Assembly (NCBI GenBank): GCA_965277775.1
Contig: OZ255843.1
Span: 583,451 to 647,450 of the forward strand
Direction of reading: 5' to 3'
From: Gammaproteobacteria bacterium
Lineage (GTDB): Bacteria > Pseudomonadota > Gammaproteobacteria > CAKMZV01
Length of the DNA stretch: 64,000 bases
The translations under genes and the position numbers were made by a program. This document shows, piece after piece, positions 13,901 to 59,500 of the stretch. How positions within the stretch are numbered: the stretch's first letter is position 1; each line of letters starts with the position of its first letter. The notes beneath the pieces were generated by a model. That model did not search any database. It saw only the letters and a program-made list of their open reading frames with translations, and was not told the origin of the DNA.

Positions 13901-13971
13901 CCGTTGAGTGCCAGATTGTCTCGTCCGTGTTTTATGACCCCAAAGGAGAAAATGTTGATGGCAATGACTAA
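10966..13971 (+). CDS. soxA: Sarcosine oxidase alpha subunit.
   Basis: 1001 aa. N-terminal CDVLVIGAGIAGM NAD/FAD fold. C-terminal aminomethyltransferase (GcvT-like) folate-binding domain. Confidence 0.85.
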   Translation: MRLANHHSTVIDADQVVNFSFNGKALTGLKGDTLASALIANRVQFLSRSFKYGRKRGLVAAGVEEPNALVSLEAEGYYTPNIRATEIQLYEGLVAKSAIDTEQFDLRAALKPFHRFMPAGFYYKTFIIQKIWAKVEDHLRRLSGNSKSPTAPDSEVYEHQYGYCDVLVIGAGIAGMQATVDLIENQNLNVILVDERAQMGGEILSDIAFDDTAKTQYQQSRITLEQQALKNPDQLRILQNTTAYSWLDDNTVLALEKVSDNQPIKQRRPNSFAKVLHKIRAKKIILATGAHERPMLFANNDLSHIMLAQSVRRYANEFGVVAGKNIVVYGNNNSIYEVAHDLLKHQLKVQVVDVRAHCDSPLVKKLQSKNIECHQGYAITAAHGKDQVESVTLQKTNYVNDQWQLIPVELSLNCDLLATSGGFNPVVHLDCHTGSKPVYNETYQTFMPVDERENRVVCGSIAGWSHWQDAQMDGHNKALTIIQALTGGKPVSQQAPPHNQSLQISPFFTPDAILKSSHVFLDMQNDVTTKDVRLSITEGYQSIEHIKRYTAMGFGTDQGKTGNINGIAVAAALLKTPMSDIGTTTFRPAYTAVPFGALAGSGLKTFFEPERFTPIHASHVAHGAEFELVGQWYRPWYFPKNGEDMHQAVQRECLAAHTSLAMMDASTLGKIDIQGKDAREFLSRVYTNAWAKLPSGKCRYGIMLDEKGMISDDGVTTCIDDNHFVMTTTTGGAAGVYSTLEMWLQTEWTDLEVYLTSVTDHFSTIAVVGPDARNCMKTLCSDVDFDRTVFKFMEWRQGTVCGVPARIMRISFSGELAYEINVQANYGKAIWDQVYEQGQPWNITPYGTETMHVLRAEKGYIIVGQDTDGSVMPVDANMSWILAAKKDFSYIGKRSLTLPALTKDKRKQLVGLHTVDESDFVLPEGTHLVNNNNQSIGHVTSSYYSAVLKRSIAMALVKDGLNRMDDVIKASIVQPYKKTVECQIVSSVFYDPKGENVDGND

Positions 13972-14530
13972 GTCTGCACAGTACCATGCTGTATTAGCAA
14001 CCGAAACCGATGAGAACGCGCACCTGTTTGATTTAAAATCGGTTCAATGCACAGAACAAACCCAGACGGCCGTGGTTATTCTGCGAACGAAAAATGCTAA
14101 AGCTGACCTCAAAACATTGGGATTTACAGCGCCTTCACCCTTAACATACAGCCAAAATAAAGCTGGCACGGTTTGTTTGTGGATAGGACCCGATGAATTC
14201 TGGTTATTGAGCACTGAAGCAGACAAGGATGCCTTGCTTAAAAAAGGAGAAGCATTATCTGGACACACTGCTTTGGTTGATAATTCTGGGGCGTACACAG
14301 CGTTGATTCTATCGGGTTCAAACGTTGACGCCTTATTAGCGCACCATGTGCCCTACGACCTCAAGCAAAACCTCCCATCTGGCAAGGTGGTGTCCACGCT
14401 CTTTGCCCAAGCGCCCACTGTTATTTATAGAACAAAAAACGAGACCATCCTCATCGTACGCCACTCTTTTGCCCACAGCATTGCCCGCCTATTGAAGCAA
14501 ACGGCCAATCGATTTTCATCGGGTGTCTGA
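13952..14530 (+). CDS. soxG: Sarcosine oxidase gamma subunit.
   Basis: Track ORF begins at 13904 inside soxA. Likely starts are the MLMAMTKS Mets at about 13952 to 13964, overlapping the soxA stop. Size (~190 aa) and position fit SoxG. Confidence 0.7.
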   Translation: MLMAMTKSAQYHAVLATETDENAHLFDLKSVQCTEQTQTAVVILRTKNAKADLKTLGFTAPSPLTYSQNKAGTVCLWIGPDEFWLLSTEADKDALLKKGEALSGHTALVDNSGAYTALILSGSNVDALLAHHVPYDLKQNLPSGKVVSTLFAQAPTVIYRTKNETILIVRHSFAHSIARLLKQTANRFSSGV

Positions 14531-14613
14531 CATCTGTTCAAAGACTTAAACGTTTTTTCCTTTTGCAGGGAGAAACCCTCAGTTAAGCACAGTCACGATG
14601 CGCCCCTGATACT

Positions 14614-14643
14614 CCGAGTTTTTCTAACAAAAAAACCACCACC
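14614..14643 (+). repeat. Copy A of a recurring junction motif: CCGAG-TTTTTCTAAC-AAAAAAA-CCACCACC.
   Basis: Shares the core TTTTCTAAC(G/A)AAAA...ACC with copies at 15916..15948 and 47307..47335. Lies between the soxG 3' end and the AT-rich islet. Confidence 0.5.
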
Positions 14644-14712
14644 TTTTAAACGAAAGCGGGGAAATTTGTTGTATGGAAGTCTCGGTTGTTGACAGCCAAT
14701 CATAGTCACCTG

Positions 14713-15342
14713 TTAGAGTAGGCTAAGGTTCTCTTTTAGCCAGTCTGATATAAAATTGGTGTAATCATTGTAAGTGACTTCTTCGGGTCTCAATTTTAAT
14801 TCTTGGCAGATGTTTTTCATTTCCATTAAAAATTTTCGATATCGATTATAGATTTCAATGCCTCCGGGGATCGTTTTTTTACCAAGTTTGTCATTCAACC
14901 AATTCCTTATTTGAGAAATTGCTTCTTCTGGGTGATTATTGTGGGACTTGATATCTTGTCCAGCAATATCCGACATAAATTTTTGATAGCGATGTGGTTC
15001 TTTGTCCAATATTAAGGTGATTTTTTGCTCTTGATCCTCATCCCCGAATTCCTTCGCTCCTATAAATACCCCTAATTCCAAGGGCATATTAAATCTAGGG
15101 AGTTTATTGATTTTATCTAATTCTGTTCTAGATATATCGTGAATGCCAAACTTAGATATTTCTATTAATTTTTTGATTTTATCAAAACGGACAACACCAC
15201 TGTCCTCTTCTTCAAGGGCACATTTTGGGATAAATCCGCAGTCAAATATTGTAAAAATTATTGCAGATCGAATAGATTCATATTCATCATCAAACGGACA
15301 GTTAACAAAAACGTTAAGGGGATAATCCTTGTGCATGCTCAT
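14713..15342 (-). CDS. TIR-like domain protein (resembles Pfam PF10137, 'predicted nucleotide-binding protein containing TIR-like domain') with an uncharacterised ~70-aa C-terminal extension.
   Basis: 209 aa. NVFVNCPFDDEY...PRFNMPLELGVFIGAKEFGDE...MSDIAGQDI...IRNWL aligns with the remembered PF10137 consensus (kVFIvHGhd...pRaRqNVifElGyFiGkLGRe...PSDlsGv...W..L). The reading frame is AT-rich. Confidence 0.5.
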   Translation of the reverse strand: MSMHKDYPLNVFVNCPFDDEYESIRSAIIFTIFDCGFIPKCALEEEDSGVVRFDKIKKLIEISKFGIHDISRTELDKINKLPRFNMPLELGVFIGAKEFGDEDQEQKITLILDKEPHRYQKFMSDIAGQDIKSHNNHPEEAISQIRNWLNDKLGKKTIPGGIEIYNRYRKFLMEMKNICQELKLRPEEVTYNDYTNFISDWLKENLSLL

Positions 15343-15346
15343 CCAT

Positions 15347-15733
15347 TTATCGTTTTTGTGATCTAGCAGCGATCACTTTTAAAACGGCCTTTTTTATTGC
15401 AATTCTGCTTATTTTTCCTTTTTTAGGTGCTGATTGTACAATTCTATTGGTATTGGCGGCTTTCGCAAGTGTTTTACCTGCGGAAGATTTTGATTTTGGC
15501 GATGCATTTGGACTTCTAAGGGTCTTTGCTGCCTTGGTTGTTGCTGCTTTCGTTAATGTTCTACCTGCGGAAGGCTTTGATTTTGGCGATGTATTTGAGC
15601 TTCTTAGGGTTTTTGCAGCTTTCGCAAGTGTTTTACCTGCGGAAGATTTTGATCTTGGAGATGCATTTGGATTTCTAAGGGTTTTTGCTGCCTTGGTTTT
15701 TGCTGCTTTTGAAGGTGATTTTTTAACGGGCAT
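15347..15733 (-). CDS. Lys/Ala-rich histone-H1-like (AlgP/Hc1-type) DNA-binding protein with three imperfect 24-29-aa tandem repeats.
   Basis: 128 aa, very basic. Repeats of AKTLRxxNxSP(K/R)SK(S/P)SAG(K/R)TL(A/T)KAA. It ends 4 nt before the start of the TIR-like gene, so the two form an operon. Confidence 0.5.
   Translation of the reverse strand: MPVKKSPSKAAKTKAAKTLRNPNASPRSKSSAGKTLAKAAKTLRSSNTSPKSKPSAGRTLTKAATTKAAKTLRSPNASPKSKSSAGKTLAKAANTNRIVQSAPKKGKISRIAIKKAVLKVIAARSQKR
15458..15688 (-). repeat. Three imperfect tandem DNA repeats (72-87 nt units) encoding the KA-rich repeats of the H1-like protein.
   Basis: TACCTGCGGAAG...TTTGATTTTGGCGATG...TTCTAAGGGT recurs at about 15475, 15562 and 15634. 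The antisense ORF 15447..15767 is an artefact of this repeat. Confidence 0.8.
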
Positions 15734-15915
15734 AATTGTTTCCTCAAATTCTGAAACGATCGTTTAATATTTAAGTTCAACTCCGCTTAAAGTTCTGTTT
15801 TCTAATTGTGTTAGCCACCTTGAGACGCTGAACTGTAGCACATTGATTTTGCCAAAGTGTACCACATTTGATAGGTTGTGTTGTCCCATGTCAGTCAATC
15901 GTGCGTATAACTGGA

Positions 15916-15948
15916 CCGTTTTCTTTCTAACGAAAAAAAAACACCGCC
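15916..15948 (+). repeat. Copy B of the junction motif: CCGTT-TTCTTTCTAAC-GAAAAAAAAA-CACCGCC.
   Basis: See copy A. Located at the other edge of the AT-rich islet, between the 3' end of the 811-aa gene and the H1-like gene promoter region. Confidence 0.5.
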
Positions 15949-16022
15949 TCATGAATGAAGAAACCAACATTCGGTAAACTCAGTCAATCGTGGGAAAATG
16001 GCGTAAGCGAAGGAGGGGATGA

Positions 16023-18458
16023 TTAGAATAATTTTTTGAGTTTATCTTCAACCGCGTCTTTGAGTTGCTTTTCAGCCTTATTTTGTTGCTCTTTGCGTTG
16101 CTTTTCAGCTTCAATTTGTTGCTCTTTGATGGCTTCTTCAATGCGTTTTTGTTCCTCAAGCAAACGGTTTTGTTCTATCAGTGTTTGGATGTCAAAACGG
16201 CGCAGTGATTCGATCTTTGACCGTTTGGAGTTTAGCAGTTGAGTGGTATTGTCCAAGTCGATCATCTTTTTATTGAAGTCTTCTATGTACGATTTGCGCA
16301 AGTCTGAAAGCTTGCGTCGTGCTTCGTTCTCAAAATCACTGCGAAATTCTTTAAAAACAGACTTTAAAGCGCCACCTAACTTGGCATCCAAATCTGAGTT
16401 AAAACCAATGTCGGGCGCGCCCAGTGAACCTCCAAAATCGATCTGTATGGAAAAGTCATTAAAGTCATTTAAAGCGTTCACCACGTATTTGCCTTCGGCC
16501 AAGGTTCTATAGCCATAAGTGTCCCAAGAAATGTCTTTATAATTGTACGCCAATTGCCCCTGTAGCTGATTATTGGCATCAATCCTCAGTTGGCCTTTAA
16601 TCTGCTCCTTGCCCCTATCTATGATCAGTGGCAGTTTCTCTTCTTGTAGCACAGTGAATTGTTCAATGCGTTTATCCAATTGATCAAAGTGCCATTCAGA
16701 AAATCCAGCACCTGACACGCGATAATCAAACACCCCATTCACCGTCAAAGGCACAGCGGATTTTTCAGCAAATGAAAGTTCGGAAATCATACCACTACCT
16801 TGGTGGTCAAAATGAAGGTTATGTCCCTCACCAATCCATTCTTTATCTTTAAATAAAGCGCTGATGTGTGTTTTTTTGATGTTGAAGCTGGGTTGAATAT
16901 CATATTCCTTAAAAGTGACCACTGTGCCTTTAAATACCAGGCTCGGGCTCTCATTTTTTCTTTGTTCACGCTCATTAAACCAAGTGACAGCATACTCGAT
17001 GATTGGCTCAGCTTTGACATACCATTCTCCCGCCGTATCAAATCGTTCAATCACATCTGGACCCAGAATGAGTTTGCCCAAATTGCCTAAGCCATCGTTG
17101 TTTAACTGGTATTGTGAAAGTAGGTTATTAATATCTTGGTCAATCGCACCATTTAAGTTTCGAATGTCGGTATTGACAACGTTCTGCTTGGCTGATAAAT
17201 CTTCATAAGCCAAGCTAATGGCCGCTTGTTGATCGGTCAATTTTTGCTTGAGGCTGTTCCAATGTTGATTCGCATCGGCAAGGGCTTGCGGATTGTTTAA
17301 ATCAACGCCCTTAAGCGATTCAATTTCTTGTTCTATAAACTTCAATTGCGCATCATCCAAAAAGACACTTTGGGTATTACGATAGGTCTTCTCTAAATCA
17401 TCAATTTTTAATTGCAAATCGACAATTTTTTGATTGAATGAAAGATTTGACTGAGCGATAATTTGGTCAATATCGGGTGTGGCAAGATCTGGCATTGTGA
17501 ACGTATCTTGCGCTGTTTTTGGTTCTGCGCCTGCCTCATCCACTACACTGTTTGATTCTGCCGCGGCCCCATTTTGTGGCGTATAAGGAACCGTTCTTAG
17601 CTGATCAAAGCTCATCCCTTTGAGTGTGAACTCCTCCACCACCCATCGACCGACAATGTAATGGTAAGTGCTGATAGACATTCTCAATTGTTGAATTTCA
17701 AATTGATTGCGCTTTACATCGTCTGGGTCTGCAACACTCACGCCTGTTAGCTCAAAAGCGAAGGGAATCACAGAAAATTGCACGCCTGAAATGCTGATCG
17801 GTGCTTGCCACAGAACAGACAATTGTTTTTCTAATTGATCTTTGATGAGATTTGAGCTTAGAAGCCAGTAAAAACCAAAACCGAGCGCCACAATCACACT
17901 GAGCAAGCTTATCTTTAGCTTTGAAAACCATGGCGATTTAGCTGAACTTTGCTGTACTCCAAGGATTTTGGTCACAAAGGATAACTTAGAGTTTTGAATT
18001 TTTTGAATCAACGCCAAATTTTGAACCCCTTTTAGGACGCGTTCACGGTACACTTTCAGCGTCAACCAAACAACAAAGAACAAGGGGATAATCAGCACCC
18101 AAGAGAGTATAAAACTGCCCAAAACAACAGAATCATTAAATCGAAAGAAACGCCAGATGGGATCGTTGTAAGCACCCGTCCAAAAAGCGCTTAGACTCGG
18201 AAGCTGTAACAGCCACAGTCCGAACACATCAAAAATAGGGAAAAGCACCAGCGCGGCAACCTCACTGAGTCCCCAACCCAAGACAAAGACGTTGTTGTTT
18301 ACTCTAAACAACATATAAAGTATCACAACGATGGCGTTGTGCGGTGACAGTAAGGGGGTAATGCCTATTAAACAGCCCAAACAGAGCGCAAATGCCCTTT
18401 GCGCAGGTGTACCTTCATTGACGAAGACTTTTAAATAATCAAACGATTCAAATTTCAT
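16023..18458 (-). CDS. Large membrane protein. The N-terminus is DUF2062-like and multi-pass. It is fused to a long TIGR03545/DUF748-like periplasmic region with a C-terminal coiled coil.
   Basis: 811 aa. N-terminal TPAQRAFALCLGCLIGITPLLSPHNAIVVILYMLFRVNN matches the DUF2062 signature. The C-terminus is K/E/Q-rich coiled coil (KRIEEAIKEQQIEAEKQRKEQQNKAEKQ). Confidence 0.45.
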   Translation of the reverse strand: MKFESFDYLKVFVNEGTPAQRAFALCLGCLIGITPLLSPHNAIVVILYMLFRVNNNVFVLGWGLSEVAALVLFPIFDVFGLWLLQLPSLSAFWTGAYNDPIWRFFRFNDSVVLGSFILSWVLIIPLFFVVWLTLKVYRERVLKGVQNLALIQKIQNSKLSFVTKILGVQQSSAKSPWFSKLKISLLSVIVALGFGFYWLLSSNLIKDQLEKQLSVLWQAPISISGVQFSVIPFAFELTGVSVADPDDVKRNQFEIQQLRMSISTYHYIVGRWVVEEFTLKGMSFDQLRTVPYTPQNGAAAESNSVVDEAGAEPKTAQDTFTMPDLATPDIDQIIAQSNLSFNQKIVDLQLKIDDLEKTYRNTQSVFLDDAQLKFIEQEIESLKGVDLNNPQALADANQHWNSLKQKLTDQQAAISLAYEDLSAKQNVVNTDIRNLNGAIDQDINNLLSQYQLNNDGLGNLGKLILGPDVIERFDTAGEWYVKAEPIIEYAVTWFNEREQRKNESPSLVFKGTVVTFKEYDIQPSFNIKKTHISALFKDKEWIGEGHNLHFDHQGSGMISELSFAEKSAVPLTVNGVFDYRVSGAGFSEWHFDQLDKRIEQFTVLQEEKLPLIIDRGKEQIKGQLRIDANNQLQGQLAYNYKDISWDTYGYRTLAEGKYVVNALNDFNDFSIQIDFGGSLGAPDIGFNSDLDAKLGGALKSVFKEFRSDFENEARRKLSDLRKSYIEDFNKKMIDLDNTTQLLNSKRSKIESLRRFDIQTLIEQNRLLEEQKRIEEAIKEQQIEAEKQRKEQQNKAEKQLKDAVEDKLKKLF

Positions 18459-34949: not shown

Positions 34950-35022
34950 AAAATATGCTCCTAAGTGTCTGTGATTTTGAGAGCAGACCCAAATAAAGCA
35001 AAATCACTTTATTGTTTTTGCT

Positions 35023-35703
35023 CTATTTTTCGTTTGAACTGCTAGGCATATCCTCTACAGCATGTGGTCCATCTACGGCGACCAACAACTTGGTAAATTT
35101 TTCTTTATTATCATTATTGGCTGTTTCAAAGACAGCACACTTTGACCATCCATCGCCGAATATCTTTCTGTTCATCCACTGATCTCTGGCCTCAATTAGA
35201 TGTCGCGTCTCCTCAGTCTGTGTTTCTTTGTCAACGTTGGTGTACCAAACTGAAGCCAGTAGAACCTTATAGACAAATTTACAATGACTCTTTGATATAA
35301 TCCATGTATTACTATTCATATTTTGCAATCTTTTTGCATCTTTTAAAATGGCATTGTGAGCCATTATAGAATTTAATTTACCATTCCTGGCATTACCCCG
35401 TTTAATTTTCTTGGCTTCAACGATCAATATTGATGAGTTTTTGTCTTTGTCTGTTAATTTGATGGCTGCGTCCAATCTTTCTTTACTATCTTCGTAAATC
35501 CGCATTTCAGTCCAAGCGGAAACATTATCAAAACCATTATTTCGTCTCACTGCTTCAATGAAATGACTGACAAAGTTATATTCGTGAATGCCATCGTCTG
35601 AATACTTTGGTAGATAGTCCTCACGCATTTGGTTATGAATTTTCAGTGCCATCGTGCAAGCATCCTTAACCAGCTCAACAATACTATCATTTTCTTTAGT
35701 CAT
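35023..35703 (-). CDS. AT-rich orphan gene, possible PD-(D/E)xK nuclease-fold protein.
   Basis: 226 aa. Candidate motifs: E in helix (IHEYNFVSHFIEAV), then ...AAIKLTD-KDKNSS-ILIVEAKKIK (D ... ExK spacing). Strong SD (GGGAG). No recognised family. Low-GC codon usage relative to neighbours. Confidence 0.35.
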   Translation of the reverse strand: MTKENDSIVELVKDACTMALKIHNQMREDYLPKYSDDGIHEYNFVSHFIEAVRRNNGFDNVSAWTEMRIYEDSKERLDAAIKLTDKDKNSSILIVEAKKIKRGNARNGKLNSIMAHNAILKDAKRLQNMNSNTWIISKSHCKFVYKVLLASVWYTNVDKETQTEETRHLIEARDQWMNRKIFGDGWSKCAVFETANNDNKEKFTKLLVAVDGPHAVEDMPSSSNEK

Positions 35704-35751
35704 CTTATGATCTCCCTTGTTTGTTAATTATTAATTGCGAAAATCTAAGTC

Positions 35752-35781
35752 AAAAAAAACCCGCAAATGCGGGTTTTTTTT
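35752..35781. terminator. Bidirectional rho-independent terminator: AAAAAAAA-CCCGC-aaat-GCGGG-TTTTTTTT.
   Basis: GC stem flanked by an A-tract and a U-tract, immediately downstream of the pal-like gene (minus strand) and upstream of the orphan gene. Confidence 0.7.
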
Positions 35782-35809
35782 GAATGTAAAAACAATTTAC
35801 AACCAAACT

Positions 35810-36373
35810 CTAATCGGAGTACTTAAACTGAGCTCTGCGATTTTGTGACCAGCAACTTTCATCGTGGCAAGTGGCAATTGGTTCCAATTCGCCGTAACTG
35901 ACCACACTCAAGCGAGAGGGGTCAATGCCTTGATTGATGATCAAAAAGTCAAAAGCTTGGTTAGCACGACGTTCACCCAAAGACAAGTTGTATTCGCTGC
36001 TGCCTCTTTCATCACAATGTCCTTGGATTTCAGCTTTAACACTTGGGTTATTGCGCAAGAATTCAGCGTGTGATTCTAATACGGCTCTGGCATCATCATC
36101 TAATTCAGCAGAATTGAAGGCAAACTTAGAATTGAGATTACTCATTTTTTCAAGTTCTGCAACATAAGCCAATCGCTCTTCTTCTGTTTCAAAGCGACTG
36201 TCTGAAGATAATTTCAACACATCATCTAAGCTAACGCTGCTTGCAGAGCCAGATGCAGAATCGCCGCCGCTCACTGAAGTCGCAGCATCATCGGTTTCGG
36301 TTTCTTTGACATTATCGCCACAAGCAACAACACTCAATAATAAGAATATGCTTAATAATAATTTTAAATTCAT
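35810..36373 (-). CDS. OmpA-family peptidoglycan-associated lipoprotein (Pal-like).
   Basis: Lipobox LSVVAC. Asp/Ser-rich linker. C-terminal OmpA domain (NLSLGERRANQAFDFL...RRAQF). Confidence 0.7.
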   Translation of the reverse strand: MNLKLLLSIFLLLSVVACGDNVKETETDDAATSVSGGDSASGSASSVSLDDVLKLSSDSRFETEEERLAYVAELEKMSNLNSKFAFNSAELDDDARAVLESHAEFLRNNPSVKAEIQGHCDERGSSEYNLSLGERRANQAFDFLIINQGIDPSRLSVVSYGELEPIATCHDESCWSQNRRAQFKYSD

Positions 36374-36504
36374 GGTTATCTCGTTTGTATAAAAGTTAAT
36401 AAAATAATGGTTTAGTTATATTTTAACAACAAATCGCCACCCTGTTGTTTTAACACCACAGCTATTCTATCAAATAAAACGCACAAAATACAAATAAAAC
36501 GCAT

Positions 36505-37146
36505 TTAAAAGACAAATTTAGTTCTTTTTGTGGGTTTTTTAAGGGGTTGAACATCTGTTTCAAACAATGTTTGTTTGACAAATTCCTTTTGATTTCGTTT
36601 AACCAAAACCGCCTTAACCAATGATCCTTCTTGCTCAAACACAAATAATCTGCCTTGGTCTTTCAAGCTTTTGAGCCACTGTTCTGGACATATTTCGGTT
36701 GAGCCAGAAGCCACAATCACGTCAAATTCTCCTTTTATTTGTTCTGAGAACCCGCAACCCAACTTTAACTGGACATTTTTGCACTTGCCTAAGTTTAACT
36801 CTGCCATTTGATGGATTTTTTCAGAAATTTCAAAGGCCACCACTTTTTTGGCCAATAAAGCAATCAAAGCCACAAGATAGCCACTGCCTGCGCCAATGAC
36901 CAATGCCCTGTCGGTGTCCTTTATTTGCAAACTTTGAACAATGTGGGCTTCAACCTTTGGCGTCAACATACATTCGCCTTCCGCCAAAGGCAAGCAGACA
37001 TCAGCAAACGCCATCTCTTGCTGATCGGCGCTGACAAACTGTTCCCTTGGCAATTCAAACAACAAATCTAAGGTTCTTTGGTCCAACACATTCCATGTGC
37101 GAATTTGTTGTTGAATCATGTTGGCGCGTGCTTTTTCAAAATCCAT
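36505..37146 (-). CDS. pcm: Protein-L-isoaspartate O-methyltransferase family protein.
   Basis: 213 aa. SAM motif I VIGAGSGYLVALIALLA and overall collinearity with PCMT. Confidence 0.6.
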   Translation of the reverse strand: MDFEKARANMIQQQIRTWNVLDQRTLDLLFELPREQFVSADQQEMAFADVCLPLAEGECMLTPKVEAHIVQSLQIKDTDRALVIGAGSGYLVALIALLAKKVVAFEISEKIHQMAELNLGKCKNVQLKLGCGFSEQIKGEFDVIVASGSTEICPEQWLKSLKDQGRLFVFEQEGSLVKAVLVKRNQKEFVKQTLFETDVQPLKKPTKRTKFVF

Positions 37147-52371: not shown

Positions 52372-53073
52372 TTATTGATAAAAGCTATGAATGCGATTTT
52401 GAATCGACATGGCCATGGCTTTTGGATCTTCTGCTTGTCGGATGGGACGTCCCATTACTATGTAACTGGCACCATTAGAAAAAGCTTGCTCCACATCAAC
52501 CACCCTTTTTTGATCATCCACATTTGCAACTGGCCGAATGCCTGGCGTTACCACAATAAATGCGTCTCCGTAATGTTGGCGCAATTGCTTGGCTTCCAAG
52601 CCTGAAGAAACAACCCCTTCACAACCAATGGCAAGCGCCCTTTTGGCTCGTGACAAGACCAGAGACTCCACCTCGCAGGCAAAACCTAAATCCGATAAGT
52701 CCCCTGTGTCCAAACTGGTGAGGGCGGTCACTGCAAGCACACCCATTTTGTTTTTGGCTTCACAAGCTGCGCGCATTATGGCATCATTGCCATGGACGGT
52801 CGCAAATTCCGCACCCTTATCATCCAAGGCACTGACCGCAGCAGCGACTGTTCGGGGCACATCAAAAAATTTGAGATCGATAAAGATTTTTTTATCCTGA
52901 TCTTTCAGCCAATCGATCAGATCAATGTAATTGCCAGACATGAATAATTCCAATCCCATTTTGTAAAAGTGCACACTGTCCGCCAATGTGTGGACCATGC
53001 TTTTTGCACTATCAAGGCTACTAATGCCGTCTAAAGCAAAAATCAGACGGTCTTTGGTTTCAATGTTTGGCAT
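52372..53073 (-). CDS. pyrF: Orotidine-5'-phosphate decarboxylase.
   Basis: 233 aa. DLKFFDVP active-site motif (Lys/Asp). IFALD start. Confidence 0.85.
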   Translation of the reverse strand: MPNIETKDRLIFALDGISSLDSAKSMVHTLADSVHFYKMGLELFMSGNYIDLIDWLKDQDKKIFIDLKFFDVPRTVAAAVSALDDKGAEFATVHGNDAIMRAACEAKNKMGVLAVTALTSLDTGDLSDLGFACEVESLVLSRAKRALAIGCEGVVSSGLEAKQLRQHYGDAFIVVTPGIRPVANVDDQKRVVDVEQAFSNGASYIVMGRPIRQAEDPKAMAMSIQNRIHSFYQ

Positions 53074-53503
53074 GTACTTAACATTTTTAATTATGATTCA
53101 CAGAACAGTAATGGCTGCATCAACCTGTCCCAAGTGTTTGTTTTAAGACTTGAGACGCCCACGTTTGAAGCGGTGTTCTTCAAATTCTACCATGTCAGAA
53201 TGACAAAATTCGTTGGACTTATTTTGCCCACTAACAATTGGTTGCGTATATTCATAGCGTTTATTGTAAAAATAATGCAAATTCTAACTTGTGAATTTTG
53301 TTAGTTTGCTTAGTTTTATGCAATAATTTCGCACAATGTCAATGAAAAAGAATGGCCTGCAAAGGGCTGCAATTAAAATCGCTTCCCCTCTTTAATAAAG
53401 GTTCAATATTTTGTTTTCATCGGTTGAATAATATACTTATCTATTATAATAATTAGAACATTAAAGCTCAGATAGTCACAATTAAAGTTCAAACAAAATC
53501 GTT

Positions 53504-56500
53504 ATGTATCAATTATTGCTCAGATGTTTCACCCAATCCTTTGTCAGCTTTTCTTTTCAATGGAGCACCACCAATCGAATAATAAACACTTTTAAGCGCG
53601 TATTGAGTTCAATCAATAAACGCGTGCTGAGCTCAATGTGCTCGACCCTGGTATTATTCGCAATGTTATCCGCAATGTTATCCGCATGTGGTGGCGGCGG
53701 CGGCGGTGGTGAGCCGACACCAACGCCGACACCGACACCAACTCTGACACCAACGCTTTCGGTTTTGTTCCCGAGCTTGAGAGTCGATGAAGACTTCCCA
53801 GTAACTTTGGTGGTTGCCACTGCAACCAATGCAACAAATTTAACGGTCGATCAATCCACCACTGGGGTGATTACTGTGGCGCCAACAACAAACTCAGTGA
53901 CAGTTTCAAGCTTTGCCAATGGCAATGGACAAACCACTTTAACCATTGTCGCCACCAATAGTTCGGGTAGCACGACTGCACAAGTGGTCGTGACAGTAAA
54001 TGCTGTCAATGATCCACCAACAATAGCTGTCTCAAGCAATAGCATTTCAACTGTGGGAGGCTTTTCGCCGATTACCATTAACACCACAGCAAGTGATATT
54101 GAAGATGCCCATTTATCTTTCACCGTGATGGATGCCAATACAAGGGTAGTCAGAATAACCACATCAGCAGCGACTATTGTGTTAAATACCATCCCTGGTG
54201 CTTCAGGCCAGACCACCTTAACCGTCATTGTGGTTGATAGCTCGGGAGCAACAGTTACTCAATTCATCACTGTCAGTGTGACCATTACGGTCAGTGCCAC
54301 ACCGGTGGTGACAGTTTCTACTAATTTGATTAGCGTGCAAGAAGACTTTAGGGCTTTGGTCATCATCCAAACCACAGCAACGGATGCTGATGGTGATGCC
54401 ATAACCCTATCTGTAAGTTCATCCTCGCGTTTAGTTGATGTAGTTATATCCACACCAAACAACAGCACCAACACCATCACCAATAGCATCACCTTATCGG
54501 CGGTTGCCAATGCCAATGGCACAGCAACCTTGACTGTGTTAGCAACCGATGCGGGTGGGCAGTCTACTAATACTGAGATTATTGTCGTGGTATCGTCTGT
54601 TCAAGATACACCGACCTTAACCATACCATCTACGACTTTAACCGTAGCAGAAGATTTTGCGAGTGCTCTAACCATTGCCACAGCAAATGATAGTGATGGT
54701 GATACGCTCCTGATAAGTGTGGTTGAAACCACCACGGGCGTAGTCATGGTCACAACCTCAGCCTCAGGGGTGTTTGTGTCAAGCATACTCAATGCGAATG
54801 GGCAAACCACATTAACGATAACCGTCAATGATGGCACACAAGATACAACGGCTCAAGTGGTAGTCGACGTCACGCCTGTTAATGACCCACCGACCTTGAC
54901 CATCCCGAGTGCAACATTAACAGTCTTAGAAGATTTTGTGGGTGCTATGACGATTGCCACAGCAACCAATGTTGACAGCAATACGCTCACTTTTACTGTG
55001 ACTGAATCAAACTCAACGGTAGTCAATGTAACAACCACAGCCATAGGCGTCTCTATATCAAACATTCTCAATGCCAATGGACAAACCACCCTAACCATTG
55101 CTGTCAATAATGGCAATCTGAGTTCTACCGATCAAGTGATTGTGACTGTGATAGCTGTCAATGATACGCCTACATTAACCGTCTCAACGAATGATATTTC
55201 AACGAATGCTGACTTTTCAACGATCACTATTAATACCACTGCGAGTGATGTCGATGAAGGCACTTTAACTTTCGCTGTGACTGTTTCTACCACTGGAGTG
55301 GTCAGAGTATCCACTTCCTCGAATGCCATTATTTTGAACGCCATCCCTGATACGACAGGTACAACGACTTTAACCGTCCATACAATCGACAATTCTAGGC
55401 TGATGGCTACGCAAACAATTGTAATCAATGTGTCACCTATTCCAAATCTTTTCCCTGTTCTGATGATTTCCACTACCCGAATCAACGTTCAAGAAAATTT
55501 TATGAAACCAGTGATCATCCGAACCACTGCTACAGATGCTGAGGATGGAACCATTACCCTTTCTGTGAGTTCATCCTTGCCTCTTGTGAATATCGTTCTA
55601 TCATCACCAGACAACGGCGAAAGCACCATAACTAATAGAATCACTTTAACTGCGGTTGATAATCTTAATGGCAAGACAACCTTAACTGTGCTTGTAACAG
55701 ATGCTGGAAAGCAAGTCACCTCTACTGAGATTGTGGTGGTCATAAATTCCGTAATTGACCCTATATCGTTTACCTTATCCACCTCTGTCGTCACCTTGTC
55801 AGCTCTCGGCAATCAACTCAATCGTAATGTACAAAGCATAATTATTAGCAACCCAGGCAATGAATCCTTAAGGACTCAGTGGCAGGTTTTGAGTAGTGGA
55901 AGCCCACTCTTTTCAGCCAATCCAGCCCCAGTGGTGAGTTTTACCACCAATATCCTAACAACCACAGCCACCTTGACCTCAGCGGCATCAACGGCACAAT
56001 TGTATTTTACGATCAGGCCAGATCGTACTGGTACGGCCACGCTGACCATACAATTGACTGATCTGGATACTTCAATAACGACACAACAAACCATAGTGGT
56101 ACACGTCAATTCAGTCAATGTGCCTCCAGTTATTGCACCATATAACTCAAATCTTTATAATTATGTTATTTATGGTGGCCGAATATATGCCAATTCTATT
56201 CAAAGCGTACAATCACTAAACCCATTATTAACCGAAGCCAGAGCTTTGGGTGGGCAATTGATTAACTTCAATTCAGATGAAGAGTATCGATTTATACTTG
56301 GTGCAGCAATAGAAACTCAAAATACTTGGTGGGGTTTGGTTTTACCGCAACGAGAATTCCCTGGTGAGCTGTCTTGGATAACACACAACAGCACCATTTC
56401 TTATGGGTATGCCAGCACCAATGGCATCACTAACCTCACTGTATATCCTGGTCAATACCCATTGCCCTGGGCGACTGTTGCTAGTGGTAATGGACTAATT

Positions 56501-59500
56501 GCCAATAGAGGTGGAAGCGCCACTGCTGTCAATGGGACGGTTTACTCCGACGGTGCTTTTTTATTCTTATTAGGAGAGGGTGGGGATGGTAGTTCACGTA
56601 TTGGGCTTTTTGAATTTCCTCAAGGCTTATTAGAAGCTTCAAACATTCAAACCTATGTTGCAGCTGGCTCAGTTGCAACCGTGAGATTGACCGGTTTTGA
56701 TTTAAATGCTGATGCGATACAAACATCTGATTGGTCTGCGGTGGCAACCGCTGGTACAGTAATATTTAATCAGGTGTCACAAAGCACTGGGATTCAAAGC
56801 GTGGACATGATGTACACCCCACCAGCTAATTTTAACAGCCAATCAACCGTTGTCGTCACACTAGACGTGAATGGCCAAAACACTACCACTGCCCTATTGT
56901 TTAGATTGGATAGTTTTCCAATTATTGACTTATCAACAAATGCCATTTCGATTACCGAAGATTTTACTAACTTAGTTATTGGTACGACCATAACAGATGA
57001 GATCGATGGGACCCTACCATTTACCGTGCGATCTTCTAACTTAAATGCGCTAATCATAACCACCTCAGCAAATGCCATTCGACTATCAGGGGCGCTCAAT
57101 TTCAACGGTACAGTCACTTTGACTGTTCGGGCAGCAGACTCTGCTCAGCAGATCGCTTTTACAACGGTCGTGATTTCAGTTCAGGAAGTGAATGACCCCC
57201 CAACATTAATGGTTTCAACCGATAACATTTCACTTTTGGGTGGCTTTGCACCCTTCACCATTGCCACGACAGCCACTGATATTGAGCAGGGTGCTTTACC
57301 CTTTACAGTACAAGCATCACCTCAAAGTGTCGTCTCCATAAGCACTCGTACCAATGCCATTGTGTTGTCCCCCATAGTAGAGGCGGGCTCAGGTCAAACC
57401 ACCTTGACCGTCACAACAATCGATCGTTTTAATGCCATAGCAACCCAAACCATTGCAATCAATTTAATCGTGTTACCAAGCTCGACACCCGTGTTGACTG
57501 TTTCCACCAACATACTCAGCTTGCAAGAGGATTTTACTGATTTTGTCATCAGAACCACGGCCTCAGATGTCGATTCAGCGACCTTGGTCATAACAGTGAG
57601 TTCGTCAACGCAATTAGTCGATGCCATGATTTCGACTCAAATGATCACATTGCGTTCAGTGGCTAATTTATTTGGTACGACCACCCTAACCGTCCGTGCG
57701 ACGGATTCTGGGGGATTATTCGACACGACAGAAATTGTTGTCGTGGTGAACTCTGTTAATGATAGGCCAACTTTAACCGTCTCAACGCACACAGTCACTT
57801 TAGGGGCACCTCCTTCCTCCGTTATTCTGTCTGTATCAGCCAGGGATGTGGAGGATGGCATCTTATCTTTCAGCGTTTCGACGGGTTCAAGCCTTATTAA
57901 TTCAACAAACACCACCACAACTTTAACCATAACGCGATTGAACTTGGATGCAGCTCAAGCCGTTTTAACCCTCAGAGCGACCGACTCAATGGGCGATTCG
58001 ACAATAACCACAATTAGTGTCGTGCCACAGCCAGTATTATTTGTGACAACTGGCATTAAGACCCTTGATTTTGCTTGGAGTGCGGTCTCTACGGCAACGC
58101 ATTATCGCTTACGAAGTAATCCGGATGGCAACTCAGGGTATGTGGATTTGAGCACCACAGGTATGGTGGTTAGTCCGAATAGCACTAATATTAGGCAAAC
58201 CACTGCGCAGGGTTTGGTCTCCTTACATCGCTACATCCCAAGAGTAAACAATCCACAGTTTGGCATAAATACCTGCAATGCAAGCTCGTGTAGCACCTCA
58301 TTTGAGCACAATACAATAAACTTAACCAATGCACAACTGAACAGTCTGATTGGTCGATTGCAAGCCAGTAACGCTGCAACAGGTGCTCGTTTTGGCTATT
58401 CTGTGAGTTTGAATGGTGATGGTAACACCCTTGCTGTGAGCGCAAATTCAGAAGGTACAGGTGCTCGCCTTTCAGGAGCGGTGTATGTGTTCCAGCGTAA
58501 TGGGCGAGATTGGTCACAACAAGCATTCATCAAACCATCAAATAGTTCAGCGTTTCTTCTATTTGGTAGTTCTGTGAGTTTGAGTGGCGATGGCAATACG
58601 CTTGCGGTGGGCGCAGATCAGGAAAGCAATTCAGCTACTGGCGTAAATGGTGCTATAAATCAAGGATTTGTGCTCGCATCGGGCGCGGTATATGTATTCC
58701 GTCGTAATGGAACTGACTGGACACAACAAGCATACATCAAAGCCTCGAATACGGGTGCAAATGATGAATTTGGACTGGCTTTGAGTTTAAGCGCTGATGG
58801 CAATACACTTGCAGTGGGCGCACGATTTGAGGATAGCACCTCCAATCTAATTAATAGTGGAGAATCTAATAACAGCGCAACTAATGCAGGGGCGGTGTAT
58901 GTATTCCGCTTCAGTAGTAGCACATGGTCACAGCAAGCATACATCAAAGGATTGAATACGAGAGTGGGCAATTTATTTGGTCAATCTGTGAGTCTAAGTG
59001 CAGTTGGAAATACGCTTGCGGTGGGGGCAACTGGTGAAGACAGTGCTTCCACCCAGGTCAACAGCGGTGGAACCGATATAAATGCAGCCGATGCAGGTGC
59101 AGCATATGTATTCCGCTTTAGTAGTAGCACGTGGTCACAACAAGCATACATCAAAGCCTCAAATACTGGTTCTGGCGATTTGTTTGGTCAATCTGTCAGT
59201 CTAAGTGCAGATGGTAATACGCTTGCTGTGGGCGCAATGAATGAGGACAGTGCTTCCAATCAGATCAACAGTGGAGAAACTGATTCAAATGCAACCGATG
59301 CAGGTGCGGTGTATGTATTCCGCTTCAGCAGTAGCACCTGGTCACAACAAGCCTATATAAAAGCTTCAAATACAGGTGCTGGCGATTTGTTTGGTCAATC
59401 TGTGAATCTAAGCACAAATGGCAATGTGCTTGCGGTGGGGGCAAATCGGGAAGATAGTATAGCCTCTGGGATTGTAACAACTGAAGATAATCAATCGCTT

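Follow-up and report, generated by a model that had tools for sequence, protein, structure and literature searches.

The AT-rich islet at positions 14531-16022 of the window (the whole 64,000-nucleotide stretch of DNA analyzed here) encodes, on its minus strand, a small and very basic partner protein together with an acidic protein of TIR-like fold. The conserved pairing of the two genes is strongly supported. The islet probably holds a single copy of a two-gene conflict module (defense or addiction type) that is both mobile and widespread, and that seems to be of a new kind among bacterial conflict or defense systems. Our best overall explanation, to which we give an even chance, is that the TIR-like protein is an N-glycosidase on which the partner docks and which it probably holds in check or tethers. 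NAD-processing enzymes of the TIR fold have a central role in the immunity of bacteria, plants and animals. The clade described here is large, with members on chromosomes and on conjugative plasmids in many phyla, and it is covered by no Pfam, NCBIfam or PADLOC model.

Organization and composition of the locus

The partner gene (128 aa, 15347-15733, minus strand) precedes the gene for the TIR-like protein (209 aa, 14713-15342, minus strand), and the two are separated by the four nucleotides ATGG (15343-15346, minus strand), which lie between the partner TAA and the ATG of the second gene. A hairpin with a T-run, resembling an intrinsic terminator (14639-14659, minus strand), closes the operon 54 nt past the stop of the 209-aa gene. 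The two-gene operon noted in the first-pass annotation is borne out by these elements. Given the 4-nt spacer, translational coupling of the partner to the TIR-like gene is likely. Where the partner lies upstream (27 loci), its distance to the start of the TIR-like gene ranges from -17 to +12 nt, with a median of -2 nt. Upstream of the operon, 289 intergenic nucleotides (15734-16022, minus strand) extend from the stop of an 811-aa gene to the partner ATG without a long ORF. We presume that they hold the promoter and the 5' leader; the segment is 93-96% identical to the sister strains L087 and L088, and scanning it found no strong sigma-70 consensus.

The compositional deviation claimed for the islet is confirmed. 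Its GC content is 0.379, compared with 0.442 (sd 0.028) in windows of the same length, which places it in the lowest 1.4%, and the 209-aa gene (GC 0.343) ranks among the bottom 0.4% of 630-nt windows. The partner gene has a GC3 of 0.33 and the TIR-like gene one of 0.22, against 0.43-0.50 in soxA, soxG, the 811-aa gene and rnhA. The left flank of the islet is clearly GC-richer, and the right flank (0.40-0.43) is less different. A protein identical to the TIR-like product, 207 aa when read from the second ATG (P0001), is present on a public contig of 2.06 Mb; an exact-sequence lookup with the 207-aa product of the window returned no record.

Fold and candidate active site of the TIR-like protein

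The TIR-like protein (209 aa, pI 5.4) has at least 7,961 homologues, and the family comprises 3,326 clusters at 50% identity (E<=1e-3). The enzyme retains 55-70% identity across phyla, which is unusual for an arms-race gene and runs counter to a conflict reading. The AF2 model (pLDDT 84.8, pTM 0.85) presents a TIR/NDT fold with the three-layer, TIR/flavodoxin-like arrangement. Foldseek matched this model to RPP1, SPARTA TIR-APAZ, AbTir, SARM1 and TIR-STING, and its best structural match among viral proteins carries the annotation Cap12/Pycsar TIR. The TIR/NDT-fold (STIR) core comprises residues ~8-153 (14884-15321, minus strand) and is defined by the invariant residues N14-x-P16-F-D18, D34-C-G36, D69, R72-T73, P82-RFNM-86, E89, G91, D113, R118-Y119, S124-D125, H134 and W148. 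The core is followed by a family-specific C-terminal extension (residues 154-209; 14716-14883, minus strand), modeled as an IPGG turn and two long helices (161-181 and 191-206) with pLDDT above 90. I158, P159, G160, G161, R167, F171, E188, D193 and W201 of this extension are conserved family-wide. The extension reported in the first pass is a real and conserved element of the family, and it has no family match of its own.

Assignment to the PF10137 family, as had been proposed, stands only in part. The 209-aa protein matches no model in Pfam, NCBIfam, PADLOC or PHROGs, and the absence of any match to PF10137, PF08937 or PF13676 at E<=1 formally speaks against the proposal; the canonical TIR HMMs (PF01582, PF13676 and PF08937) likewise gave nothing. 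What stands is the TIR/NDT fold and a sub-threshold similarity to PF10137 in 19 of 46 homologues (12-18 bits against a gathering cut-off of 24.7, best E 0.0014), with colinear alignments that span nearly the whole domain (profile positions 23-112 of 119). The window protein itself scores nothing against this profile. We regard the TIR-like assignment as supported only at the level of remote homology. The PF05014 and LOG HMMs do not match the family, and its profile has no meaningful match among PDB sequences. Comparison by hhalign with seven TIR domains, namely six TIR_2 domains that occur in natural fusions with the family and the ThsB-type TIR found in the L056 partner, was not significant, with a probability of 0.26%. 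Fusion of the TIR-like domain to a canonical TIR_2 is seen in 6 of the best 150 representatives. A recognizable sensor domain (SAVED, STING, SLOG or CARF) is absent from the ~205-aa protein.

The candidate catalytic residue is Glu89, which is invariant within the segment PRFNMPLELG and lies at the N-terminal end of helix 3, which follows strand 3. In NDT and TIR enzymes the catalytic Glu would occupy the same topological position; PF10137 likewise has an invariant Glu at the start of helix 3, a presumed equivalent. As the TIR_2 profile comparison is not significant, the equivalence of the catalytic residues is positional only. The protein could be an NAD+/nucleotide glycosidase, an assignment to which we give somewhat less than an even chance.

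The basic partner and its repeats

The partner is rich in lysine (20%), alanine (19%) and serine (15%), and its pI of 12 and net charge of about +34 contrast with the acidic TIR-like protein. AF2 assigns no secondary structure to residues 1-109 (pLDDT 50-70) and a helix to residues 110-127 (pLDDT 85-93); the protein is thus predicted to be disordered except for one C-terminal helix. Three K/A/S-rich repeat units (residues 8-40, 41-64 and 65-93; 15455-15712, minus strand) conform to the type s-KAA-x-KAAKTL-x5-S-x3-KSSAGKTLAKAA and are each recovered by the unit HMM (E 4e-13 to 1e-9). At the DNA level, TRF reports a sole period of 72 nt with 2.1 copies.

The Lys/Ala-rich composition and the three tandem repeats were correctly described in the first pass; the accompanying assignment to the H1/AlgP/Hc1 type of DNA binder was not upheld. 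No H1, Hc1, HC2 or other histone-like model in Pfam or NCBIfam matches the partner at E<=1. The repeat unit matches phrog_5079 instead, a family of small phage proteins of unknown function (partner residues 4-37 on positions 8-41 of 49, E 8.7e-9, PHROGs). The partner has no match among the Pfam, NCBIfam and PADLOC models. That neither protein of the pair reaches threshold in these three collections counts against a conflict reading.

A conserved motif accompanies the TIR-like gene

The conserved element of the partner is not the K/A repeats, which are limited to about 10 of 86 loci and are ruled out as a conserved feature, but a C-terminal motif of ~30 aa, R·VK··PK·G·vSR··IKKAV··V. In the window it reads RIVQSAPKKGKISRIAIKKAVLKVIAARSQKR (residues 97-128; 15350-15445, minus strand) and the partner scores 46.5 bits against the motif HMM. 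The motif is modeled as an extended stretch that leads into an amphipathic helix, the latter confidently predicted. Its R and G are invariant, the helix face I-x2-AV-x2-V is kept, and the motif is conserved at the protein level across more than ten phyla.

This motif adjoins the TIR-like gene on the same strand in 53 of the 86 loci (27 upstream, 26 downstream), and in 59 of 86 after HMM iteration; among the non-seed loci it is present in 30 of 63. Only two matches lie away from a TIR-like gene in 808 kb searched in six frames. Co-occurrence of the pair elsewhere is therefore found, with the motif rather than the K/A repeats as the shared element of the partner. In the remaining 27 of 86 loci the partner escapes HMM detection, with divergent copies visible by eye in some of them, so that the asymmetry expected of a toxin, an enzyme never without its partner, is not established. 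In most phyla the partner precedes the TIR-like gene, whereas in Poribacteria it follows it; this reversed order is a point against a conflict module. In the literature searched, no description of a TIR-like protein paired with a basic partner was found, although one may exist.

The motif exists in free-standing form, as peptides of 41-80 aa, and fused to K/A units, DUF2188, a CBASS cyclase, a ThsB TIR, TPR arrays or an unknown domain of ~600 aa. In L047 and L071 the fused domains are CD-NTases (PADLOC Cyclase, E 5e-125; Pfam DncV-like NTase), and in L056 the motif is joined to a ThsB-type TIR. The DUF2188 fusion matches the PADLOC candidate PDC-S16. In PADLOC-DB v2, only such partner fusions at other loci have matches (PDC-S16, Cyclase and ThsB), and neither protein of the window matches a family. 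DUF2188 is tied to defense in papers citing Burroughs and Aravind; its similarity to HicB-like antitoxins has been proposed, with an HHPred match that is not significant. Natural fusion of the enzyme to the motif was absent among the best 150 representatives, and the motif profile has no meaningful match among PDB sequences. We consider it likely that the partner docks directly on the TIR-like protein through this motif, and we hold this part of the explanation with the most confidence.

Distribution, mobility and loss

The module is spread over many bacterial phyla (more than ten). Its distribution is patchy and of low frequency: a pattern search across the genomes of 185,579 species gave at least 599 matches. 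Some genomes have several copies. Seventeen plasmids, eight of them conjugative, carry the module, and the enzyme copies seen there are annotated as 'hypothetical protein'; on one plasmid the module lies directly behind tniA-like, tniB and tniQ genes, a Tn5053-like context. The module is present in 0 of 50,697 phage genomes and in 4 of 2.9 M viral contigs. These counts rule out a phage origin, and we take the near-absence from phages as neutral, not supportive, for the conflict reading.

Loss of the enzyme with retention of the partner is seen in two lineages. In L087 and L088, the sister strains, the TIR-like gene is truncated near codon 17 and a partner of 44 aa is intact, its repeat units having been removed by an in-frame deletion. 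In a Poribacteria population an identical 52-aa peptide is found with the enzyme in two places and without it in four, and the breakpoint falls exactly between the peptide gene and the enzyme gene. Horizontal acquisition, as suggested in the first pass, is plausible given the GC content, the patchiness, the plasmids and the Tn5053-like context; an empty site, however, was not found in close relatives. These hold a decayed copy at the same position, and a simple recent insertion at this site is therefore rejected.

Most of the genes that flank the pair in 80 loci (140 first-shell neighbors) are housekeeping genes and do not look like parts of defense islands, an observation counter to a conflict reading. 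A minority of neighbors encode AbiJ_NTD4, PD-DExK, Eco57I, SAVED, AAA_15/DUF4276 (which we take to be a PARIS-like pair) and DUF433-DUF5615. The conflict reading is supported by the plasmid carriage, low GC, transposon context, multiple copies, orphan partners and defense-domain fusions, and by the conflict-type genes beside some loci.

Proposed mechanism and alternatives

In the mechanism that we propose, the helix motif would dock on the TIR-like protein, both proteins being co-produced through translational coupling. The partner would serve as a regulator or adaptor, which by default would restrain the enzyme in an antitoxin-like manner, and its variable part (here the three K/A units) would tether the complex to nucleic acid. 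The trigger would be loss, titration or clustering of the partner, as could happen on invading nucleic acid. Through the Glu89 pocket, the TIR-like domain would then act on NAD+ or a related nucleotide, breaking its N-glycosidic bond, and the cell would be arrested. The sensor/effector and toxin-antitoxin-like roles suggested in the first pass would both fit the evidence. That the partner is an inhibitor of the TIR-like protein is a tentative element of this scheme, to which we give roughly one chance in three. If docking and regulation operate in this way, the module would represent a new defense or addiction system with a new wiring of sensor to TIR effector, and would provide the first functional context for DUF2188 and phrog_5079.

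Two other readings keep an enzyme at the center. A signaling pair of the CBASS or Thoeris type, in which the TIR-like protein answers a nucleotide signal made by the partner and the motif merely holds both together, would account for the genuine CD-NTases and the ThsB-type TIR that bear the motif, and for the TIR_2 domains joined to the family. We consider it quite unlikely, as signal-generating fusions occur in only 3 of 86 loci, the partner here and in the large majority of loci is a peptide of 41-128 aa without an enzymatic domain, and the TIR-like protein lacks each of the four sensor domains sought. We also see little prospect for a housekeeping or stress function, namely an NDT/DNPH1/LOG-like salvage or nucleobase-releasing enzyme accompanied by a basic chaperone that binds nucleic acids or ribosomes, the pair having spread by horizontal transfer. 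The patchy distribution, the multiple copies, the plasmid and transposon contexts, the loss in sister strains, the fusions to CD-NTase, ThsB-TIR and TIR_2, and the silence of the PF05014 and LOG HMMs all speak against it.

The remaining readings concern the partner. The literal first-pass reading, in which a TIR protein is held on chromosomal DNA by a nucleoid protein of the H1/AlgP/Hc1 type, with the K/A repeats as the essential partner element, draws on the composition, pI and three tandem units of the partner, and K/A-rich basic tails commonly bind nucleic acids. It is very unlikely, and as a general rule largely refuted: the units are rare among the loci and missing from the intact partner of the sister strains, they belong to phrog_5079 and match no histone-like model, and the element that is conserved is the C-terminal motif. 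Fortuitous adjacency, or a small ORF that is not a gene, is hardly credible. The ORF is often skipped by gene callers and its sequence is of low complexity, but the motif is kept across phyla almost only beside the TIR-like gene, the repeat deletion of the sister strains preserves the reading frame, and the spacer fits translational coupling.

Comparison with known systems

CBASS (Cap12) and Pycsar use PF10137 TIR domains as their effectors. The TIR-like protein shares the fold of these domains (TIR-STING and TIR-SAVED of CBASS; PycTIR), and in two loci the gene has a CD-NTase as its motif-bearing neighbor. It differs from them in its two-helix tail, which takes the place of a STING, SAVED or TM sensor, and in its usual partner, which is a basic peptide and not a cyclase; the window holds no cyclic-nucleotide sensor fusion, CD-NTase or pyrimidine cyclase. 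With Thoeris, SpbK and SPARTA the module shares a TIR-fold protein, a compact operon and residence on mobile DNA; the structural similarity to SPARTA TIR-APAZ and AbTir and the fusions to TIR_2 and ThsB point the same way. Unlike Thoeris, the module lacks an effector bearing a SLOG, Macro or TM domain, the window proteins match no PADLOC Thoeris model, and the family is not significantly similar to TIR_2 by hhalign. A keyword search of the text of a 2025 survey found a small basic peptide partner described for none of its 29 Thoeris types.

Likeness to type II toxin-antitoxin modules is found in the two small co-directional genes with a minimal spacer and likely coupling, in a first product that is small, disordered and of opposite charge, in orphan partner copies that outlive the enzyme, and in the mobile, patchily distributed module as a whole. 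MbcT-MbcA is such a type II module with an NAD-targeting toxin. NatT-NatR is another. The present module departs from this class in having a TIR/NDT fold instead of an ART-like or RES fold, a partner without a DNA-binding fold or a known antitoxin family, and a gene order that is reversed in one phylum. The N-glycosidases NDT, DNPH1 (Rcl) and MilB have no HMM similarity to the TIR-like family and lack its C-terminal helical tail, and we know of none that pairs with a basic peptide.

Short terminal docking peptides and adaptors are represented by the effector-associated domains of NTPase conflict systems and by encapsulation peptides. The motif would resemble them in its short amphipathic helix, which can be N- or C-terminal, its disordered linker, its many unrelated cargo domains and its location beside the gene of one hub protein, a likeness that is architectural only. 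The motif might be a portable docking tag that plugs unrelated sensing or signal-making domains (CBASS cyclase, ThsB TIR, TPR arrays, DUF2188, phrog_5079-type repeats and arrays of free peptides) into a single TIR-like hub that cleaves NAD or nucleotides. We regard this as possible, though doubtful. If true, it would be a previously unrecognized adaptor-based architecture of bacterial immunity in more than ten phyla, invisible to current annotation because a partner of 40-130 aa is often missed by gene callers.

The partner recalls H1, Hc1 and AlgP in its basic, K/A-rich tandem repeats and predicted disorder. It differs in that its repeat has a 24-33-aa consensus of its own, with the phrog_5079 match in place of a histone model, and in that the repeats are dispensable across the partner family.

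The islet and its two genes

Two open reading frames lie on the minus strand of the islet at 14531-16022, which is flanked by soxG (13904-14530, plus strand; PF04268) and by the gene for an 811-aa membrane protein (16023-18458, minus strand; NCBIfam TIGR03546 and TIGR03545). The first (15347-15733) encodes a basic protein of 128 aa, hereafter the partner, and the second (14713-15342) a TIR-like protein of 209 aa; a spacer of four nucleotides, ATGG, separates the partner's TAA from the ATG of the TIR-like gene. The unit is preceded by 289 nt without genes and ends in a hairpin followed by a T-run (14659-14639, minus strand). GC content of the islet is 0.379, against 0.442±0.028 for windows of the same length (lowest 1.4%), and that of the TIR-like gene is 0.343 (lowest 0.4% of windows). 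GC3 is 0.33 in the partner and 0.22 in the TIR-like gene versus 0.43-0.50 in adjoining genes. As ORF layout, spacer, GC and GC3 are all as measured here, the first-pass annotation was correct in describing an AT-rich islet with a two-gene minus-strand operon and a 4-nt spacer.

A large family with a TIR-like fold

HMM searches with the 209-aa protein found no match in Pfam, NCBIfam, PADLOC or PHROGs. A word-indexed search, with 8,000 candidates scored, returned at least 7,961 homologues at E<=1e-3, typically of 198-223 aa, with 56-71% identity and without a Pfam domain; an exhaustive profile search returned 3,326 representatives of 50%-identity clusters at E<=1e-3, 769 of them at E<=1e-30. Alignment of 46 diverse members has 46 invariant columns, among them N14-x-P16-F17-D18, D34-C-G36, E44, D69, R72-T73, P82-R-F-N-M86 and E89-L-G91 in the N-terminal half, and D113, R118-Y119, S124-D125, H134 and W148 further along.

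The AlphaFold model built from this alignment is confident (pLDDT 84.8, pTM 0.85). In it, residues ~8-153 form an alpha/beta core of five strands, after which come an IPGG turn and a pair of long helices (161-181 and 191-206). Structure comparisons of this model agree on the fold: Foldseek against the PDB matches RPP1, SPARTA TIR-APAZ, AbTir, SARM1, TIR-STING and DNPH1, and, of the viral models, the top match bears the annotation 'CD-NTase-associated protein 12/Pycsar effector TIR domain'. Sub-threshold matches to PF10137, the only family that recurs, appear in 19 of the 46 members (best E 0.0014). The likeness to PF10137 proposed at first pass thus holds as remote homology and fold and not as Pfam membership, because the alignments run colinearly (in one case, residues 34-128 against profile positions 23-112 of 119) but score 12-14 bits, below the cut-off of 24.7.

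In NDT and TIR enzymes the catalytic Glu follows strand 3, at the N-terminal end of helix 3. Invariant Glu89 occupies this place in the model and may be its positional counterpart; we infer this from position, since profile-profile alignment of the family to TIR_2 gave nothing usable and a profile search of the PDB found no sequence relative.

The TIR-like domain is fused to an N-terminal canonical TIR_2 in 6 of the top 150 representatives, and other family proteins carry a recurrent C-terminal domain of ~100 aa without a Pfam match (P0250, P0276, P0286, P0299, P0300 and P0350; signature …FVILxxxxxxxSYxQ…LEYQEGxLDEHY…), whose first helix (P-x4-I-x2-AI-x2-L) loosely resembles the partner helix. 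Three members have weak matches to DUF4062, another TIR/NDT-like family. A protein beginning MDKRYQVFVSSTYADLQQER…, DUF4062-like by eye, is encoded directly downstream of the two genes in one Gemmatimonadota genome (L004:5748-6776; L-numbers denote genomic loci of homologues).

The partner and its conserved motif

The partner has a pI of 12 and a net charge of about +34 (K 20%, A 19%, S 15%). It contains three Lys/Ala-rich (K/A) units (aa 8-40, 41-64 and 65-93; consensus s-KAA-x-KAAKTL-x5-S-x3-KSSAGKTLAKAA), which had led to its being called an H1-type DNA binder. That identity is not borne out: no model of the histone-like families matches the partner, and the match at residues 4-37 is to phrog_5079 (E 8.7e-9), whose members are small phage proteins of unknown function. 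AlphaFold leaves residues 1-109 without predicted structure (pLDDT 50-70); its single confident element is a helix at 110-127 (pLDDT 85-93).

Comparison of 80 loci places the conserved part at aa 97-128, a motif of ~30 aa, R-x-V-K-x-x-P-K-x-G-x-(V/L/I)-S-R-x-x-I-K-K-A-V-x-x-V. The K/A units, to which the motif is C-terminal, occur in about 10 of 86 loci (the window, L085, L003-5, L008-11 and L014) and never away from the module of partner and TIR-like gene. Free-standing small genes of K/A units only, phrog_5079-like, also adjoin the module (L018:5627-5881, L025:5739-5882 and L009 at ~629, minus strand); the unit thus need not be fused and can form a third gene. Partner tails of L021, L028 and L034 (Poribacteria) share a further short motif, (R/S)-(D/A)-A-x-TGR-(F/Y)-(I/V)…, after which these Poribacteria partners have …K-x-TAVVETI-(K/R)-(K/R)-P; the partner on the alphaproteobacterial plasmid L097 has the motif in reduced form, and no family is assigned to it.

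A significant same-strand copy of the ~30-aa motif directly adjoins the TIR-like gene in 53 of 86 loci (27 upstream, 26 downstream), rising to 59 (69%) after two HMM iterations; among non-seed loci the count is 30 of 63. Elsewhere in 808 kb, read in six frames, there are two significant copies, one being a tandem second partner. The pair thus recurs in other genomes. The figure of 69% is a lower bound because divergent partners escape the motif HMM; in several HMM-negative loci a diverged copy can be made out by eye, for instance '...LAPVATKKATVSDQRIAAAVKSVLAKKK*' on the Sphingomonas plasmid. Upstream partners touch or overlap the TIR-like start (median gap -2 nt), and all downstream partners are in Poribacteria. 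Gene callers had overlooked the partner in both of the two long contigs checked.

Fusions and arrays of the motif

In its commonest form the motif is a free-standing peptide of 41-80 aa, seen in 186 proteins that all lack a Pfam domain. It also stands N-terminal to genuine CBASS cyclases (L047, L071; PADLOC Cyclase, E 5e-125), to a ThsB-type TIR (L056; PF08937, E 8e-21), to a 14-repeat TPR protein (L046) and to a ~600-aa unknown protein (L030, L042, L064). In one Poribacteria locus (L089:2143-3723) five small genes in tandem (58, 58, 54, 48 and 62 aa) come after the TIR-like gene, and at least three of them carry the motif; this array adjoins AAA_15/AAA_21 and DUF4276 genes, which by our reading resemble a PARIS-type defence pair. 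DUF2188, the PADLOC candidate PDC-S16, bears the motif at its C-terminal side in Acidobacteriota and two viral contigs and at its N-terminal side in L032, L053, L072 and L075. Papers that cite Burroughs and Aravind link DUF2188 to defence, and one paper proposes similarity to HicB-like antitoxins, for which the HHPred match (E 0.5) is not significant.

Loss of the enzyme and mobility of the module

Two sister strains keep the synteny of rnhA, the 811-aa gene (protein 96% and 92% identical), a gap and soxG. The gaps (L087:8437-9303 and L088:8503-9354) hold a decayed module: the upstream region is 93-96% identical to that of the window, the partner is intact at 44 aa and without repeats (MTVKKSPSKAAKTQRIVQSAPKKGKISRSAIKKAVLKVIAARSK), and the TIR-like gene is cut at about codon 17, leaving a reading frame of 20 codons, beyond which lie ~375 nt of unrelated DNA with a minus-strand ORF of 64 aa. 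In a Poribacteria metagenome population (L090-L095:2370-3971), an identical 52-aa motif peptide occurs with the enzyme in two places and without it in four. A DUF433 and DUF5615 pair always follows the peptide, a TIR-like or an Eco57I-family gene precedes it, and the recombination breakpoint falls exactly between enzyme and peptide genes, ~14 nt past the TIR-like stop. The K/A repeats, which vary from three to none between near-identical strains, and the enzyme are therefore dispensable, and the partner has outlasted the enzyme in both cases. Such survival is typical of antitoxins; it is no proof of asymmetry here, because many enzyme loci have no HMM-detectable partner.

Among the matches listed, species-representative genomes with the family belong to Nitrospirota, Planctomycetota, Gemmatimonadota, Poribacteria, Chlorobiota, Verrucomicrobiota, Acidobacteriota, Pseudomonadota and others, some with two copies. 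Plasmids with the gene number 17, of which 8 are conjugative, and its annotation there is 'hypothetical protein' throughout; it was found in none of 50,697 phage genomes and, among 2.9 M viral contigs, on only 4. On the Sphingomonas aliaeris plasmid NZ_CP061036.1 (L097:1-4609) the module closes a co-directional run of Mu-transposase-like, TniB, TniQ, HU-family, serine protease, 56-aa partner and TIR-like genes. This gene order points to transposon cargo (Tn5053/Tn7-like), and the operon may be a larger one, taking in HU and protease.

A candidate conflict module

We consider that the islet probably carries a conflict module. The disordered basic partner would use its amphipathic helix to bind the acidic TIR-like protein, a putative N-glycosidase, both regulating the enzyme and tethering it to nucleic acid; once the partner is lost, titrated or clustered, cleavage of NAD+ or nucleotides would be unleashed. 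The data show the fold class, the size and spread of the family, the conserved and coupled gene order, the motif with its helix, the fusions, the mobility and the loss pattern, while docking, catalysis and its substrate, contact with nucleic acid and the direction of control belong to the proposal. Three points count against this reading: the genes flanking the module are mostly ordinary, the enzyme is unusually conserved, and PADLOC models match neither window protein. A signalling pair of the CBASS or Thoeris kind seems unlikely, as it suits the three loci with a synthase fusion but only those, and we give an equally small chance to a housekeeping NDT/DNPH1-like enzyme with a basic chaperone. 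That an H1-type protein literally tethers the TIR protein, as the K/A repeats might suggest, is more doubtful still, these repeats not being the conserved element of the partner. Chance adjacency of the two genes is scarcely credible and is ruled out by the motif-adjacency statistics (53-59 of 86 loci against two copies elsewhere).

The literature searched yielded no description of the family or its peptide pairing, with a mention in Burroughs and Aravind 2020 (on DUF2188) possible. We class the conflict module with the TIR-type conflict systems; its TIR-like clade and its kind of peptide partner are both new. Such a candidate is widespread and overlooked by current annotation, and the hypothesis is clear and cheap to test.

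Other features of the window

The 811-aa neighbour joins TIGR03546 (DUF2062), its membrane part at the N-terminus, to TIGR03545 (DUF748-like) in one polypeptide whose C-terminus is a charged coiled-coil; sister strain L088 has an 833-aa version. The second-lowest GC part of the window (~35000-36800, GC ~0.365) holds a 226-aa ORF (35023-35703, minus strand) that has no match in Pfam or PHROG and adjoins an OmpA-family gene (35810-36373). A third low-GC spot (52860-53700, ~0.34) covers the 5' end of pyrF (52372-53073, minus strand) and the intergenic region beyond, which precedes the gene for a 2,063-aa FG-GAP/Big_9 repeat protein (53504-59695, plus strand).
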